This document shows, piece after piece, positions 38,450 to 61,278 of a stretch of 64,000 bases of DNA. The notes under the pieces are model-generated. The model was not told where the DNA came from and searched no databases. It saw only the letters and a list, made by a program, of their open reading frames with translations. The number at the start of each line of letters is the position of its first letter. Within the stretch, counting starts at the first letter, position 1. Position numbers and translations under genes: made by a program. The DNA comes from Eledone cirrhosa (Eukaryota): positions 2,914,001 through 2,978,000 of the forward strand of contig OZ024742.1 of assembly GCA_964016885.1 (NCBI GenBank), in the 5' to 3' direction.

Positions 38450-39220
38450 GTAAACAAGGTTTAGTAAATAATGAAAAAGTTTCAAAATAAATTTTAAAAA
38501 ATTGACTTTACCTACTATAGTTACCTTTACCGATCGGTTTCGAATCTCAAAAATAAAACGGAGACCATACGGCCTTCGTTGTTAAAATTTATTTTGAAAC
38601 TTTTTCATTATTTACTAAACCTTGTTTATATTTGTTCTGGCTCGTTAATTTATTAACCCGCCATTGAACTACATTGGCACTTGGTTGGACAATACATGCG
38701 TACCTTGGCGCCTTGTGCGTGAAGGGACGTATTTCATATTACTACTACCTCCACTAACGTTGAGAACAAACCGGGTCATTCCGACTGCTGCTGGCAACAG
38801 CGGTGGCTAGTTTGACCTACCTCCTTTTGCCTCTATCTTTGCTACGGCCCTTGATAAACCTGTTCTACATCATCCACTCTCATCCCAGGAACAGTTTTTG
38901 ATAGCGCTAGTTTGTGATTTAAATTCAGGAATTTTATATTCTTTGAATGAAAAGAACCTTCTGACGAGAATCTCTCTTTGCAACGAAGGCCGTATGGTCT
39001 CCGTTTTATTTTTGGGATTCGAAACCGATCGGTAAAGGTAACTATAGTAGGTAAAGTCAATTTTTAAAAATTTATTTTGAAACTTTTTCCTTATTTACTA
39101 AACCTTGTTTATATTTGTTCTGGCTCGTTAATTTATTAACCCGCCATTGAACTACATTGGCACTTGGTTGGACAATACATGCGTACCTTGGCGCCTTGTG
39201 CGTGAAGGGACGTATTTCAT
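38450..39220 (+). mobile_element. ORF-less HHR element (family D): inverted arm + terminally redundant ~483-bp unit
   Basis: 38450-38581 is the inverse of ~38980-39112; 38584-38738 repeats directly at 39067-39221 (offset 483); (TA)n flanks. Confidence 0.85.
38956..39039 (+). ncRNA. Canonical type I hammerhead motif
   Basis: ACCTT-CTGACGA-GAATCTC...GGGATTC-GAAA-CCGATCGG-TA-AAGGT; all stems pair. Confidence 0.92.
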
Positions 39221-41032: not shown

Positions 41033-41244
<212 letters not shown>

Positions 41245-41414
41245 AGATAAATCTACCAAAATATACGGTAGTGTCCAATCCTTATGAAGAACTCAATTAA
41301 TCCTAATATCATGAAAAGAGAAGATGTATTGAACATGTTTTTTAATGAAAACAGAGTCAAGATAAATTAATAAAAGTTAATAAAACAAAGAAGCAGTTCC
41401 TTATATTAAAAAAT

Positions 41415-41554
41415 TCATCATTTTACGATCGTTTCTAGGATATATATATGTGTGTGTTGGTATGTATATCATATAGATCTATGTAAAAGTTTTACAAACT
41501 ATTAGAGGGGATATACATACCTACACATATATATGCTGTCTTCAGAAATAATGA
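41415..41554 (-). ncRNA. Type I hammerhead motif, long stem II
   Basis: TCATTATTT-CTGAAGA-...-GAAA-CGATCG-TA-AAATGATGA. Confidence 0.82.
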
Positions 41555-42262
41555 CCAACAAAGATTTAATATAATAGGTCTGTTTGGGAACAGGTTTTTT
41601 TTGAATTGACCAATAGAAAGGTAGTAAGTGATCAAGTTGATAGAATAGTAGTAGTAGAAATTTAATTTAGGGGTAGAAGAATGCAGACTTCAGTTTTGAA
41701 TGGAAAGAGTATTTTGAATGAAAAGATTACTTTGGGGATGAAAATAGGTCAAGCCGGTGAAAGGTACACGAAAAATTGATGTTATTAAAGAATAATGCTA
41801 ATGTTAAAATCTAAGGAGATTACAATTTTACGATAAATGTGTTAGTGAAAAATATCAATCTTATTTAAAACATAAGGAATTTAGATCTATAAAAAGAAAT
41901 TAAATTAATTTAATTGATAGGTATATTTATAGGGATACATTTATATTAATTCATATAGATATGATAAATAAGAGTTAGATGTTATTAAAGAATGTTGTTA
42001 AAAACGAAGGAAAATAAATTGGGGTGGGGGAGGGGGTAAATGTATTAGTGAGATATAACAAACTTATATAGATTACAAGGAATATAGATTCATAACAGGA
42101 AATCAAAATAGTTTATATGTATACTTATTGGTATAAATTTTAGGAAAAGATAGCTGTAAAAGGGAAATAAAATCATGCAGTTCTTAGTAGTAGAATATTA
42201 ATTATAGGTTAACTAATTTAAAAAAAATGTAATTATAATAATTTGTAAAATATAAGTGTATA

Positions 42263-44330
42263 TTAATTAGGTTTATAATATTTGAAAGTTTTTCTAATTC
42301 TATGATTGCATGATATAATTAATTCTTGTCGCTTATTTAATAAGATATCCTTAGATTTCATTATTTCAAAGAGTTCCTGGGAACATAATCTACATTAATA
42401 TCTATTATTTTGATAAGGGGTGGCGCTTTTGAGCACACTCCAGGTCAGGTTATAATCGATATTCTTTTTTCTATAATTATTAATTATTTCAGCTAAGGAT
42501 GTTGTATTAGCTAATGTGGCATTTTTGAAACTGTGTTTGTGGGTATTAAATCTTACTTTAAATTGGTTAGAAGTAGCTCCTATATATGAATAAGTTGAGT
42601 CCTTAGTGCTAATTTTACATTTATATACTATGTTATTAATAAGGCAATTTCCTTTTAATGGGCAATTTGCTTTGTTTCTACAGTTACAACCTTTCGTGAA
42701 TGTTATATCAGGGGAGTTAGTCAAATTAGGTGTGGAATTTTCTCGACTTGTATGTGAATGAGATTGTAGTTTGCTGTGGTTTATTTTAGTATTATGGTTA
42801 GTTTGATGTATTGGTGGTATATTCATGGTTTTTTTTTACATTTATATGCATTGTAGGCACTTATATTTCGTTGTATAATTTTGGTTGTTGAGTAGGAGAA
42901 TTTGACCGTTGATCTATTTAAAATTTGATGGTATTTATGGTTTGGCCGGAAGTTTTTCTCTAGGATAGTAAAAACTTCTTTAGGTATATTATCTTTAATT
43001 TGTAGATTAAATGGAGCATTATACCATGTAACTCGTCTATTACGGTTTCGATATTGTTTTTTATTTTTATACGATGTATCCTGATGTTTACTAAGAGAAT
43101 TAGTATTAGTGATTTTATTACACATATTTTTAGTTAGATTCACTGATTTAGGTGTTTTAGCATGATTATTAGGAATTTTGTTAGTAATGTTATTAACATA
43201 TATTGGAATATTAGGATGAATGGTTTTTTGAAAGTTATTATATTGTATATTAGAAGAGGTAGAGAAATTAAGTTTTAAGTTGGTATGTTTGGGTATAGTG
43301 TGAGTGGCATTTAGGTGTGTATATTTCATTTGGTGTTTGTTGGTAATATTGGTTGTATGTTTGTAGTATTATTGGTACAAGGTATATATATACTAAAATT
43401 TTTTGTGGCCGCTTCTAGCTAGAGCTTCGTTATAAAAGGTCGCATTTTTATCGAATACATCCTGGTTAGATGAAAGGTAAGAAATTCTGAGTGAGATATT
43501 ATATGCTAGGTTTTTAAGGATAGATCTAGGTTGATTAGATTGTGAGTGTATGTAATGTAAGTTTTGGTTAGGTTTATGGTAAGGTTGGTAGATACCCGTA
43601 GATAAGTCTAAAGTTATATCAAGGAAATTAACTACTATACTTGTGTTTTCAAATGTAATAGTGAGACTATAATAATCTTTGAGGAAAGTTCTAAGTTTTT
43701 TTATTTTTTTCAATTTCTGATAGGCTAAGGTTAGTGGAAAGAAGAAGACAGTCATCGCGATATAAACCACCTTTAAGGTGGGGAAAAGAAGCATTTATGT
43801 TAAATAGAAGAAAGAGGCCTACAAGATCGGTAATTTGGGCAGAATCACTAGAGCCCATAGTAATGTCGAATAGATTACTATATGTATTTCTGGTCCAGTA
43901 TTCCTTCTGAAATTCCAGTAGTGTTTGTCTAGCGTGCGTGATAATATTAATGTCATCCATAGTTAAGTTTGATCTATTTTTGGCAAATATCAAGGCTTTG
44001 TTCAGGAGTATGGGTGATATAGAGGGATAATAAGCATCTATATCGAATTGTAGAAATGAAGCAGATGATTTATTTCTAATATTAGTAAACCTGGGATGTG
44101 TTTTCCCAGAGTGGTAAATTAACATGTTTTCTTAATTGTGGGATGACTCTATCTAAAAAATGTTTACTATATTTCGTATCGGTACATTTTGTTTTTTTAT
44201 CAAAGTGGTAGGCCCTCCATCTGACCCTTTTGATGAATTGGTTGGTTTTTTATATCATAAGAAGTAAGAATTCATCCTTAGAAGGTATTGGTATATTCTT
44301 TAAAGAAGTTCCCAAGTATTGTTTTTCCAT
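42263..44330 (-). pseudogene. Frameshifted PLE RT-GIY-YIG ORF
   Basis: N-term SLKNIPIPS; RT motifs FDIDAYYPSI, ITMGSSDSAQITDLVG, GLYRDD, VNFLDITLDL, YHKPN; VTWYNAPF; CNCRNKANCP; IVY...YIG; LNKR...CNHR. Several frameshifts/stops and an apparent N-terminal deletion. Confidence 0.93.
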
Positions 44331-45412
44331 TGTGATATGGATAATGGACAAGAAAAAGAGCTCAACTATATATATATAGGGAGTTATAAAATTATATATA
44401 TATAAAAATATTAATACCTTTATAAAATTATGAGCAAAGTATGTAGATAAATCTACCAAAATATACGGTAGTGTCCAATCCGTATGAAGAACTCAATGTA
44501 ATCCAAATATCATGAAAAGAGAAGATGTATTCAACATTTTTTTTATAATGAAAAACACAAGAAAACAGAGTCAATATAAATTAATAAAAGTAATAAACTC
44601 TCTGAAATAATGAAATCTAAGGATATCCTATTAAATAAGCGACAAGAATTAATTATATCATGCAATCATAGAATTAGAAAAACTTTCAAATATTATAAAC
44701 CTAATTAATATACACTTATATTTTACAAATTATTATAATTAATTTTTTTTTAAATTAGTTAACCTATAATTAATATTCTACTACTAAGAATTGCATAATT
44801 TTATTTCCCTTTTACAGCTATCTTTTCCTAAAATGTATACCAATAAGTATACATATAAACTATTTTAATTTCCTGTTATGAATCTATATTCCTTGTAATC
44901 TATATAAGTTTATTTCTCACTAATACATCTATCCACCCCCAACAATTTTTTTCCTTCGTTTTTAACAACATTCTTTAATAACATCTAACTCATATTTATC
45001 ATATATATATGAATTAATATAAATGTATCCCTATAAATATACCTATCAATTAAATTAATTTAATTTCTTTTTATAGATCTAAATTCCTTATGTTTTAAAT
45101 AAGATTGATATTTTTCACTAACACATTTATCGTAAAATTGTATTCTCCTTAGATTTTAACATTAGCATTATTCTTTAATAACATCAATTTTTCGTGTACC
45201 TTTCACTGGCTTGACCTATTTTCATCCCCAAAGTAATCTTTTCATTCAAAATACTCTTTCCATTCAAAACTGAAGTCTGCATTTTTCTACCCCTAAATTA
45301 AATTTCTACTACTACTATTCTATCAACTTGATCACTTACTACCTTTCTATTGGTCAATTCAAAACCTGTTCCCAATATTAAATCTTTGTTGATTTTTTTC
45401 AATAAACAAATA

Positions 45413-45550
45413 TCATTATTTCTGAAGAAAGCATATATATGTGTAGGTAGGTATATCCCCTCTGATAGTTTGTAAAACTTTTACATAGATCTATATGATA
45501 TACATACCAACACACACATATATATCCTAGAAACGATCGTAAAATGATGA
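45413..45550 (+). ncRNA. Type I hammerhead motif (inverted-arm copy)
   Basis: CTGAAGA 45422, GAAA 45530, CGATCG, TA, 9-bp stem I. Confidence 0.82.
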
Positions 45551-45610
45551 ATTTTTTAATATAAGGAACTGTTTCTTTGTTTTTATTCATTATTTTTATT
45601 AATTTATATA

Positions 45611-45697
<87 letters not shown>

Positions 45698-45700
<3 letters not shown>

Positions 45701-46218: not shown

Positions 46219-46287
<69 letters not shown>

Positions 46288-46472
46288 GATAAATCTACCA
46301 AGAGTTTACGGTAGTGTCCAATCCGTATGAAGAACTCAATGTATTCCGGATATCATGGAAAGAAGAAATGTAATGAAAAATCACTTTCGGTGAAAGATAA
46401 ACGGTATACAGAGTCAAGATAAAATATTAAACAAATAATGAATAAACAATTCCTTATATTAAACAAAAAAAG

Positions 46473-46626
46473 TTCATTATTTAACGATCGTTTCTAGGAT
46501 ATATATGTGTTAGAGTTGGCATGCATATTCAACAGATCTATGTACAAAATTATACAAAATTATACAAACTATCAAGATTAAATATACATACCAACACATA
46601 TATACGCCGTCTTCAGAAATAATGAA
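46473..46626 (-). ncRNA. Type I hammerhead motif
   Basis: TTCATTATTT-CTGAAGA-...-GAAA-CGATCG-TT-AAATAATGAA (10-bp stem I). Confidence 0.82.
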
Positions 46627-47254
46627 ATATATTTATTGATAATAACAACAATTCAAACTTTCAGGTCCGTTTGGGAACAAAATTGACCAATGAAAATACA
46701 AAAGGTTTAATGCCGTTCGGTGTGTGTATATACATGTAATAACCCTTACACATATTTTACAAAAATGTATGCACAACCTGTATACTCATACAAAAAGGAT
46801 GGATGCAAATACAAAATTTCAAGGTTAATGTCTCTGTAAGTTTATAATGCACAGATAAGATGCGTATAGATACATAAATATGAAAAAAGTGTATACACAT
46901 ATTTTCATACTAACACATATCCGTACAATCACACATACACGCGCGTATATGCATAAACATACACATAAACTACAAACATACAAACACACACACACCACCA
47001 CTCACATATATATATGTGGATATAAAATCCTAAGCACATGGATATTAATTCACTCACATAAACACTGGCACACACATTTAGATAAAGATACAGAAATTAG
47101 GTGGGAGGGGGGGGAGAGGTCAGTATTCAACGGTTTGGGCTGCCTGCTTAATATAGATGTATCTATAAACTAAGAAAATAAAAAATAATAATAAATAATA
47201 AATAAACATTAAAAAGGAAAGAAAAAAGAAAAAAGAAAAAAGAAATATATCACG

Positions 47255-47289
<35 letters not shown>

Positions 47290-47511
47290 ACATATATATA
47301 TCTATATATATATATACATACATATACATATACATACACATACATACACACACACACACACATATACATATACACAAACACATATACAAACACATACATA
47401 CATATACACACATCCACACTTAGAACATAACATACACACACATATATAAATATATACATATACACACATAGATACAAATACACACATACATATAAATACA
47501 CATACACATAT

Positions 47512-47572
<61 letters not shown>

Positions 47573-47876
47573 CACTCATACATAGGCATATAATCACACA
47601 TACTATATAGACACACATATATATACACACATACATACACATATACCTACACTTACATACATATATACATACAGATATACACATACATACCTATATATAC
47701 ACACAAATACATACAGACATATATACATACATACAGACAAATACTTACGCATCTATATATCGGTATATACATACAAACACCACTACACGGCATTAAACCT
47801 TTTGTATTTTCATTGGTCAATTTTGTTCCCAAACGGACCTGAAAGTTTGAATTGTTGTTATTATCAATAAATATAT

Positions 47877-48030
47877 TTCATTATTTCTGAAGACGGCGTA
47901 TATATGTGTTGGTATGTATATTTAATCTTGATAGTTTGTATAATTTTGTATAATTTTGTACATAGATCTGTTGAATATGCATGCCAACTCTAACACATAT
48001 ATATCCTAGAAACGATCGTTAAATAATGAA
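47877..48030 (+). ncRNA. Type I hammerhead motif (inverted-arm copy)
   Basis: CTGAAGA 47887, GAAA 48009, CGATCG, TT. Confidence 0.82.
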
Positions 48031-48100
48031 CTTTTTTTGTTTAATATAAGGAATTGTTTATTCATTATTTGTTTAATATTTTATATATATATATATATAT

Positions 48101-53720: not shown

Positions 53721-56967
<3,247 letters not shown>

Positions 56968-57750: not shown

Positions 57751-57869
57751 TATTGACACGTGTTTCTATAACAGTTACATAACCTGAAAACAGCTGCTAT
57801 CTACAAAGTATTAGTTATGTAGACATTCAATATTTCAATGTTATTATATACTGTCATTTCATCAGAATA
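57751..57869 (-). ncRNA. Type I hammerhead motif
   Basis: TATT-CTGATGA-.ATGACAGT...ACTGTTAT.-GAAA-CACGTG-TC-AATA; GUC triplet. Confidence 0.85.
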
Positions 57870-58391
57870 ATATTACTGAGGGCCTGTTTGGTTTTTATAG
57901 AGAATATTAGGAGGGAGGGGTGAAGTTGTTAGAAGAATAGTTGAGGGAGTGGTTTTTTGATAGCAGTGAGAATTTTTGGTGGCAGTGAGTAATTAGATTC
58001 CCATCTGTTGTTTTGACATTTTTATAGACTATATTATTGGTTATTTTTCTAAATCTATAGAAGGATTAGAGATAGTATAGATATGCGTGATTGGTTTTGT
58101 GTTTGCACTTAATTAACATTCAGACTTAAATTTTTCTTTCAAGTGTACGTATCCTTTCACCCACGCATTCACACACAAACATATTCGCACACCTCTACAA
58201 AATACATATACTCACATTTACATAGTAACATGTTCATACTTACATACATATACACATGCATACATATATATACACACATGTATTCATGTACATACATACG
58301 CGTTCATGTGTATACATTTTTATACTCAACTTATCTTTATATACACACGTATAGACACACACATATATACATACATACTCTAGTCTATGTG

Positions 58392-58472
<81 letters not shown>

Positions 58473-58751
58473 CCACTTTAATACATGAATACACTTACAT
58501 CTAACTATACACATCAAACATATATATATATATTTACTTATATATATACATTTTCACATATATATACATACTTATGGTCGCTATTAGACACATTCATTAT
58601 CGCATTTTTGCATCTATTCTCATCAGCATATCTTTCCATTATTAGTGTGGTAATTTGAGGTTATTAATATACGTATATATGTTGAGAAGAGATTGTTTTT
58701 ATATTTTTCTAACTAGATTGAAGTTTATATAGTTGGGGGGATGTCCCTCTT

Positions 58752-59557
58752 TTATGTAATATTCGGCTTGTAGTGGGAAAAAAGGGTTTTAGTTCGGTGA
58801 CGGCAGAATAATGTTCGTTCAATTCTGTTATTCAGCAATTTCTTCTTGTGTGTGATTATGTAATAAATCTCAAGATTACACAATTTGCAGAAATTTTGGC
58901 TCCTGGAAAGGCTTTGGGTTTTAGCTAATTTCTCCCATTTTAGGGTAAACTTTTGATCGCTATCCCTGAGCGTCCAAGCTTTTTCTGCTAAAGTTGTTAC
59001 ATTTCTTTGGCTCTGGTGTTTTATTGAGTAAGAATGCCTATATAATCGAGATTTAAACGATGTTGCCGTTGATCCCACGTAATACCACTCGTTGCCTCCG
59101 GATTTAATGGTACACTTATAAATAATATTTTTTTCCAGGCAGTTATTGCCGAGGGGGAAGTTGTCAGGATAGGTGCAGTTACAGTTGTGTACGTTGGGTT
59201 TTCTCTGGAGTAGTATTGCGGACGAACTTAGGTGTGGTTTATTTATGTTCTGTAGTGTATTGTCTACTGTTTTTTTGTGTTCTTTGTACTTAAGTTTTTA
59301 GTGTTTTCGTTTAACCTTCTAGTATTGATCTTTTTTATGTGTTGTTCAAGGTTTAACGCTGTAGAGTATGACAGTCTTATAGTGGTAGGGTTTAGGATTT
59401 TGTGGTATTTGTGTGATGTAGGAAAATGTCTCTTAATTATTTTAAAGAAGAGTACTGGTAAATTTGTACTAATGGAACTATTGTATTCGGGGTTATACCA
59501 TAAGTACTCTTTGCATCGCTTTCTATTAGTTTTGTTTGTTGGTTTACTGGTGTGCAT
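58752..59557 (-). pseudogene. PLE linker + GIY-YIG remnant
   Basis: WYNPEY, IRLSYS, CNCTYPDNFPLGNNC, IIY...YVG, FKSRLYRH, CKLC, LNNR...CRHR; interrupted near 59264. Confidence 0.88.
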
Positions 59558-59691
59558 ACTATGGTAGTAAGTGTGGTTTGGTGTTGTGTTATATATCTAC
59601 CTATGTGGGATTTATTTTGGGATTTATTTATATATATATATAGATATATATAGATATATATAGATATATAAATACTCACTCCACGCACACA

Positions 59692-60043: not shown

Positions 60044-60125
60044 CTCACTCCCAACACACATCTATATATATATACAAGACGTAAAATAAGAACATTATAG
60101 TAATTAACTTACTTACTTAAATTTC

Positions 60126-60207
60126 ACTCCAACTAATTAGTTTCTGAAAGGGGATATACATAGTCTTCAAATAGAGATCATGGAGAGGCCTTTCTTCATC
60201 AGGGAGT
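60126..60207 (-). ncRNA. Type I hammerhead motif
   Basis: ACTCC-CTGATGA-.GAAAGG...CCTTTC.-GAAA-CTAATTAG-TT-GGAGT. Confidence 0.88.
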
Positions 60208-60660
60208 CATTCTCGGCTAAGATTCCTGGCGATGCGCGGACACAGGAAACTTATACAAAAATAATTCAGTGGGTGTAAAAGAGCAAGCGCGGACTAAATT
60301 CCAAGACATTGAAAAAATCAGTGCCTTCTGTGTCGGTGGCAAATTCAAAAGAATCAATCACGTGACATCGAGGTTAATCAGTGAGGAGTGGGGTGTTAAA
60401 AAGACAGTAGCCAAGCTAATACTATGAACCATAGTAGTAATTTAGGCAAATTTTTGCTCAACAAAATAATTTGGAGATAATTATAAAGAAGTAGTATATC
60501 TACCAACATAGTTATACAGATGTATACTAACGCTAGCAAATATATAGGTTTTGTCTTAGTAACTTTGTGGTTCAATACAAAGGGATGCAGAACAATTATA
60601 TGAAAGACGTAAAATAAGAAAATTATAGTAATTAACTTACTTACTTAAATCTCAAATTTC

Positions 60661-60742
60661 ACTGCAACTAATTAGTTTCTGAATGGGGATATACATAGTC
60701 TTAAAATGGAGATCATGGAGAATCCTTTCTTCATCAGGGAGT
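60661..60742 (-). ncRNA. Type I hammerhead motif (second tandem copy)
   Basis: As 60126-60207 with single mismatches in stems I and II. Confidence 0.8.
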
Positions 60743-60976
60743 CATTCTTGGCTAAGATTCCTGGCGATGCGCGGACACAGGAAACTTATTAACACTCCTC
60801 ACTGATTATCCTCGATGTCACGTGATTGATTCTTTTGAATTTGCCACCGACTAAGAAAGCAGTGATTTTTTCAATGTCTTGGAATTTAGTCCGCGCTTGC
60901 TCATTTCCATCCACTAATATTATTTTTGTATAAGAATCCTGTGTCCGCGCATCGCCAGGAATCTTAGCCGAGAATG

Positions 60977-61058
60977 ACTTCCTGATGAAGAAAGGTCTCT
61001 CCATGATCTCCATTTGAGGACTATGTATATCCCCTTTCAGAAACTAATTAGTTGGAGT
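60977..61058 (+). ncRNA. Type I hammerhead motif (inverted copy)
   Basis: CTGATGA 60982, GAAA 61040, CTAATTAG, TT, GGAGT. Confidence 0.86.
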
Positions 61059-61230
61059 GAAATTTGAAATTTAAGTAAGTAAGTTAATTACTATAATTTT
61101 CTTATTTTACGTCTTTCATATAATTGTTCTGCATCCCTTTGTATTGAACCACAAAGTTACTAAGACAAAACCTATGTATTTGCTAGCGTAAGTATACATC
61201 TGTATAAATATGTTGGTAGATATACTAATT

Positions 61231-61278
<48 letters not shown>

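Follow-up and report, generated by a model that had tools for sequence, protein, structure and literature searches.

Animal non-LTR retrozymes consist of tandem repeats carrying type I hammerhead ribozymes and are expressed as circles, as described in PMC7229834. In Xenopus they have been linked to the pLTRs of Penelope-like elements (PLEs), and the same preprint reports in vitro cleavage for only one of nine dimers (10.64898/2026.07.22.740005). According to PMC8557442, PLEs of the Hydra clade target (TA)n. PLE insertions are known for their inverted arms and for a tail at one of the ends (PMC8557442, PMC3846280), and the tail is treated as optional in PMC3846280. The protein of the Poseidon PLE is reported to cut and extend both target strands, to start at two internal RNA sites which define the tail, and is predicted to be a dimer; in the same account hammerhead cleavage is unnecessary for insertion in vitro, and RNA that has not been processed serves as the main substrate (PMC11167929). 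The mode of PLE integration and the enzyme that moves animal retrozymes are presented as open questions in these sources (PMC7229834; PMC11167929; 10.64898/2026.07.22.740005).

We examined a window of 64,000 nucleotides (the whole stretch of DNA analysed here) from Eledone cirrhosa. Judged by its sequence, the element at 60076-61237 is one insertion of a non-coding repeat of about 530 nt, arranged as two back-to-back arms. Our overall reading, to which we assign a probability of roughly two in three, is that this hammerhead repeat is copied into (TA)n by a Hydra-type Penelope enzyme from an RNA that is likely monomer-length and possibly circular. The retrozyme class itself is known, and the PLE-type two-armed insertions are a distinctive variant of it. 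PLE insertion marks on a unit of retrozyme type would mean that retrozymes and PLEs are tied by mechanism and not by mere co-occurrence.

The family resembles the animal non-LTR retrozymes described in PMC7229834 and 10.64898/2026.07.22.740005 in having one type I hammerhead per head-to-tail unit, no ORF, low GC, arrangements ranging from dimers to long arrays, and co-occurrence with PLEs. It differs from them in the length of its unit, which is 513-538 nt across the family as opposed to the 150-450 nt given in PMC7229834 (it falls within the 51-972 nt of 10.64898/2026.07.22.740005), and in its stem II, which is about 50 nt long and has a mismatch at the base. Its copies are mostly dispersed two-armed insertions with fixed ends of PLE type on (TA)n, no pLTR homologue of the unit was found in the two autonomous families compared, and the family is known from DNA alone. 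With Hydra-clade PLEs, as characterized in PMC8557442, it shares the (TA)n target, the hammerhead, partial tandems, an inverted 5'-truncated arm and a tail at one end, whereas its unit carries no ORF and its tail is about 115 nt long instead of 30-40 nt. A biochemical parallel is Poseidon of Anolis (PMC11167929), whose tail is defined by two start sites that lie downstream of the hammerhead cut; both target strands are cut and extended, and a dimer is predicted. The Poseidon sites are described there as adjacent and without strand difference, whereas those of the 530-nt family lie 115 nt apart and are used nearly always one per end.

Structure of the locus

The left arm (60076..60789, minus strand) contains one complete unit of 535 nt, flanked by 124 nt of one neighbouring unit and about 55 nt of the other, and its RNA-sense 3' end lies on (TA)n at site A, about 60 nt past the hammerhead cut. 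The right, inverted arm (60793..61237, plus strand) consists of about 260 nt followed by a hammerhead and then by the tail, which runs to site B on (TA)n, about 175 nt past the cut. Both arms are 5'-truncated and meet head to head at 60789..60793, with 3 nt between the aligned arms; the RNA-sense 3' ends of both lie on the (TA)n target, which is seen on the left (60063..60075) and on the right (61234..61277). The tail between sites A and B is present as an internal copy of about 115 nt at 60483..60604 (minus strand) and as a terminal copy at 61116-61237 (plus strand). Two stretches, one per arm (60477-60789 and 60930-61242), are 95% complementary. An earlier note on this DNA had regarded the inverted copy as a diverged third one; it is instead half of one insertion, and its divergence is no greater than that between the tandem units.

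The monomer between the predicted cleavage sites (60131..60665, minus strand) is 535 nt long with 35% GC and includes a private 7-nt duplication, which is present in copies 2 and 3 of the repeat and absent from copy 1. No PLE protein match was found inside this unit, and the longest stop-free frame in 60076-61236 is 84 aa, in agreement with the initial description of the unit as free of ORFs. The arrangement in which 60400-60482 is joined to 60399, proposed as a check on other copies, does occur elsewhere, with full-length matches in the genome. A target-site duplication beyond (TA)n was seen at only one of 28 loci, namely the window locus, where the motif is a local repeat with five occurrences within 3 kb. 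This 25-nt CACTCCC/ACACAC motif stands between (TA)n runs at window positions 59671, 59796, 60040, 61274 and 62343; two of its copies flank the element in the manner of a target duplication, and it is absent from the other fetched loci.

Hammerhead motifs and predicted folds

All three hammerheads carry the core pattern CUGAUGA...GAAA-CUAAUUAG-UU and are composed of a 5-bp stem I, a 51-nt stem II insert, a palindromic CUAAUUAG stem III and a GUU cut site; the first has an A.A at the base of its stem II. The first (60126..60207, minus strand; core at 60202, cut 60131/60130) and the third, which belongs to the inverted arm (60977..61058, plus strand; core at 60982, cut 61053/61054), are type I hammerheads intact by prediction. 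The second, also of type I (60661..60742, minus strand; core at 60737, cut 60666/60665), has an intact core with one mismatch each in stem I and stem II and is probably inactive. The minus-strand cores, read directly, thus bear out the original observation of two same-strand hammerheads with cut sites 535 nt apart. Constrained to the hammerhead, the folds of copies 1, 2 and 3 have energies of -12.6, -1.2 and -10.2 kcal/mol; because copy 2 compares so poorly with copy 1, double cleavage at the window locus is doubtful, and the model indicates that its upstream hammerhead (copy 2) is probably broken. A G>C change breaks stem I of this copy, which explains why it was missed by a pattern scan with a 4-bp stem I filter.

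The minimum-energy fold is 3.8 kcal/mol more stable than the hammerhead fold. The basal stem II mismatch was present in 116 of 116 cores examined, and among copies spanning the junction, a sample partly picked for the junction, the core is kept in 116 of 146 and the core together with the stems in 95 of 146. Two-sided covariation was not found in the hammerhead, and Rfam listed no hammerhead over the window at E<=1. The monomer fold (z = -3.4) is branched with 61% of its bases paired, and the antisense strand of the unit contains no CUGANGA; a viroid-like replicon, for which a rod-shaped circle bearing ribozymes on both strands would be expected, was rejected on these two features.

Each end site has a predicted hairpin just upstream of it. 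The one before site A (60081..60127, minus strand) has a 5' strand that overlaps hammerhead stem I; 1064 of 1088 cells are paired, with no two-sided change. The one before site B is 50 nt long (60495..60544, minus strand; second copy at 61175-61224, plus strand), with z of -3.1 and -3.4. Most common variants in these hairpins retain pairing via G.U, three break a pair, and none is two-sided. In three families (window 60081-60130, L062 and window 39035-39110) pairing is predicted between the bases that immediately follow the cut and those directly preceding site A. Such pairing, which was not seen in the family with a 785-aa ORF described below, would compete with hammerhead stem I.

Copies of the unit and their ends

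In order to establish the extent of the family, the genome was queried with a 27-mer across the cut site and with the unit itself. The 27-mer has 2,048 exact genomic copies and its reversed control has none, therefore its matches are not attributable to chance. The search with the unit returned 2,889 first-look candidates, 40 of which were scored. The mapped set comprises 85 loci (25 from the genome search, 21 from the 27-mer search after removal of overlaps, and 39 of 40 further stretches) containing 148 arms, of which 38 span at least two cut sites; one array has 16 units. The copies are scattered across many contigs, and their A and B ends on (TA)n are fresh. Subfamilies exist, and each insertion has its own variant in both hammerheads. 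Three loci considered as chimeras (L107, L110 and L121) proved to be stem II subfamilies. A pattern scan of metagenome contigs gave 0 matches, and the matches in two sequencing runs of unspecified kind, available as contigs, look like genomic copies.

The arms end at 66 A sites, 67 B sites and 15 other places. On the reference unit, 58 arms end exactly at +62 (A) and 51 exactly at +177 (B). Since 133 of 148 arms stop at one of the two sites, the ends are fixed and not permuted, contrary to what the earlier note had expected of other copies. Its proposal of insertion into (TA)n held, with (TA)n abutting 119 of 132 A or B ends (one duplicated locus dropped). The TTGAG tail motif that it pointed out is indeed inside the unit; it does not form an end of the unit, the ends being at sites A and B. 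Among the 93 segments that read through site B, 91 reach the next hammerhead; the remaining two end at +206 and +228, with no match to an ORF. A tail leading into a reverse transcriptase (RT) ORF, suggested beforehand as the mark of plain pLTR fragments, was therefore seen in 0 of 93, and none of these read-throughs shows the organization of an autonomous PLE, with an RT and GIY-YIG ORF between pLTRs.

Pairing of A and B ends in three families

We classified the two ends of every head-to-head join. The 51 joins of the 530-nt family include 38 of type A+B, two B+B, one A+A and ten with an unclassified end. A+B thus accounts for 38 of 41 classifiable joins, where random choice would give half (p = 1e-8), and two of the three exceptions sit in one nested locus. 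The junction of the two cDNA arms often has an overlap of 1-12 nt. The same pairing was found in an autonomous Hydra-type PLE of this genome with an 830-aa ORF, whose ends lie at +64 or +201 past its own hammerhead and whose inverted pairs, chosen by proximity among the first 100 listed places, are A+B in 29 of 29 cases. It was also found in a sister family with a 483-nt unit (26 of 27 joins; 38 loci). Across the three families, A+B was observed in 93 of 96 classifiable pairs. The presence of the tail is therefore near-strict in three families, as opposed to optional at one end in the papers cited here.

L1 twin priming, in which both DNA ends prime on the RNA and head-to-head arms are joined by microhomology, places the second primer at variable internal sites. 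In the 530-nt family, by comparison, both sites are fixed, and the arms overlap in sequence and exceed one unit. A literature search that did not extend to the older Penelope papers on the tail yielded no statement of strict one-A-one-B pairing and no Hydra-type retrozyme ending in this way; the rule may already be in print. The near-strict pairing in 93 of 96 cases provides a sharp prediction for an in vitro assay. Together with the indirect case for a monomer template, we consider this rule the most useful result of the analysis; the 530-nt family alone is a modest addition, the class being known already.

Penelope-like elements of the genome

PLEs with intact ORFs of 830 aa and 785 aa are abundant in the genome. 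Inspection by eye revealed the motifs RWR/RWK, DKT and CxCX5C in both, matching the Hydra list of PMC8557442, and a Pfam search of the two ORFs returned 0 families. DNA homology of the 530-nt unit to either of these two autonomous families was not detected (by blastn for the 830-aa family), and the score of a tail alignment between the unit and the 830-aa family was equalled by 10 of 200 shuffles. The two do have in common the geometry with two ends and the A+B rule, as well as a C.A mismatch at the base of stem II, the GUU cut site and a 9-nt word before site B. Because of the stem II base, the GUU site and the 9-nt word, the 830-aa family is a lead for the mobilising element. In a relaxed hammerhead scan of all fetched DNA the CUAAUUAG palindrome was not found outside the 530-nt family. 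The scan recovered about 25 further types of hammerhead, in which stem III is palindromic and stem II measures 14-116 nt; many of their copies end on (TA)n 45-75 nt after the cut. Two loci were considered as parents, L026, which abuts the end of an old PLE ORF, and L010, which lies in a PLE 5' region; both were rejected and are read as single insertions.

Near-identical intact copies of the 830-aa family are found elsewhere in the genome (L061-L071). Within the window, 41240-45700 is a decayed Hydra-type PLE with inverted arms and 46285-48100 a second inverted pair of the same family, and in both of them the left end appears to be B and the right end A. A frequent form of the 830-aa family is a short inverted pair whose hammerheads are separated by about 273 nt (L199, L202, L209 and about six more pairs). 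In the three named pairs, which were inspected, the two arms end immediately 5' of hammerhead stem I, which suggests a defined RNA 5' end or a block at this point. The window also contains, at 57755-59596, a 5'-truncated copy of the second Hydra-type family (the one with the 785-aa ORF elsewhere), whose hammerhead has a 92-nt stem II.

The 483-nt sister family

A second non-coding hammerhead family, with a 483-nt unit, is present at window 38450-39219. It gave 1,408 first-look candidates, with arms of up to nine units, and fits the expectation of further families of about 0.5 kb of the same sort. Its copies are 97-99% identical and it is younger than the 530-nt family. Among its rare variants, 18 are present in all overlapping units, arrays of seven and nine units included, and eight in only some. 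Of ten arms inspected, one has its 5' end exactly at the cut site and four at +6. This family is a better experimental subject than the 530-nt family, and near-identical intact Hydra ORFs together with a young 483-nt passenger in one genome make a ready test pair.

Likeness of units and nature of the template

Segments of the 530-nt family differ by 4.6% within an arm, by 5.7% between the arms of a locus (median 4.4%) and by 11.3% between loci. Rare alleles are shared at 17% within an arm and 15% between arms, when five duplicated or multi-insertion loci are dropped and the long array is handled apart. Of the rare alleles, 54 occur throughout the overlapping segments and 21 in just part of them; arrays L005 and L122 account for 14 of the latter, and the other seven show no consistent register. 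L103, the array of 16 units, is heterogeneous, its units differing by about 6%, and local duplication is seen both in this array and in L005. There are 172 crossings of the cut site by arms, a number partly owed to how the loci were selected, and 5' ends fall exactly on it in 0 of 34 refined cases. At first 5' ends seemed to accumulate at this site; the effect vanished on refinement and was also confounded by the choice of loci. Since the units within an insertion are alike and the cut site is passed intact by the arms, the data favour a template of one unit that was read repeatedly. On these comparisons the template was probably of monomer length; that it was a covalent circle is plausible, at slightly less than an even chance. 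A required circle is disfavoured by the finding, reported in PMC11167929, that hammerhead cleavage is unnecessary in vitro.

A proposed mechanism for the insertions and its alternatives

Features read directly from the DNA (family size, the (TA)n target, two fixed ends, A+B pairing, crossings of the predicted cut site and likeness within insertions) are the ground for the following proposal. The 530-nt family is very probably a non-autonomous passenger of PLEs, that is, a non-LTR retrozyme, and movement into (TA)n by a Hydra-like PLE, as first put forward in the earlier note, is the most likely route given the target and the PLE-type ends. A tandem locus would be transcribed and its RNA cut by the hammerheads, which probably act as a dimer formed through the palindrome, and the resulting monomer would be ligated. 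A PLE protein, probably itself a dimer, would cut both strands of (TA)n, after which one DNA end would prime reverse transcription at A and the other at B. Each polymerase would pass the ligated cut site, sometimes for several rounds, and the two cDNA ends would finally join, often by short microhomology, to give head-to-head arms. Such two-end priming, which the end data make likely, yields exactly two outward-facing 3' ends and is in line with the behaviour of the Poseidon protein in PMC11167929. In its fullest form, in which the 530-nt RNA is a circular parasite and the subunits of a Penelope dimer prime both ends of one (TA)n break at two structure-marked sites, each rolling round the circle, the proposal is tentative. 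If true, it would make the one-A-one-B rule a general signature of Hydra-clade PLE integration and would bring the tail, the inverted pLTR and tandem arrays into one mechanism.

The same priming could also have operated on an uncleaved linear tandem transcript, or on a linear RNA of about 1.3 units re-entered by template jumps, with the hammerhead a passenger and the circle unneeded. We regard this as unlikely, though the in vitro results in PMC11167929, with cleavage dispensable and unprocessed RNA dominant, agree with it, and long arrays such as L103 could serve as sources. The 7-nt duplication of the window locus would fit two different source units, and very young homogeneous source arrays would mask any register. 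The 5' ends are divided on this point: those at and near the cut site in the 483-nt family fit a linear RNA, whereas the refined ends of the 530-nt family avoid the exact site. Rare alleles that are shared no more often between arms than inside one, and the lack of a consistent register among the partly shared variants outside L005 and L122, also argue against a linear template, as do the rare variants fixed in all seven to nine units of the 483-nt arrays, which need a one-unit bottleneck at some point.

Two further explanations dispense with the unit or with the second primer. Plain pLTR fragments of an autonomous PLE, with 5'-truncated arms and template jumps, would resemble the partial tandems, inverted truncated copies and one-sided tails common in PLE insertions (PMC8557442, PMC3846280), and a satellite grown by unequal crossover would account for the local duplication at L103 and L005 and would accord with the local pLTR amplification proposed in 10.64898/2026.07.22.740005. 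In neither case would there be a replicating unit of its own. Both are largely refuted and very improbable: the read-throughs of site B enter no ORF, the copies are dispersed with fresh ends, and the subfamilies and insertion-specific hammerhead variants fit neither. That the inverted arm arose by self-priming or fold-back of the cDNA after the first strand, or from an antisense template, and not by priming from the second DNA end, is hardly credible. Self-priming from palindromes at inverted junctions is argued for in PMC3846280, both arms share a template lineage, and some 830-aa pairs meet at a near-palindromic junction. Fold-back, however, predicts like ends and not A+B, and an A-ended arm shorter than one unit cannot supply the A-to-B tail, yet such loci, L073, L111, L126 and L142 among them, end at B. 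Loci with a short A arm and a B arm therefore refute fold-back unless a second template was used.

Other elements in the window

Besides the PLEs, the window contains an intact-looking frame of 976 aa with endonuclease and RT, belonging to an element of LINE type (53722-56652). In a long repeat region at 6997-37777, 101 copies of a 52-nt satellite give way to about 1,820 copies of a 14-nt satellite.
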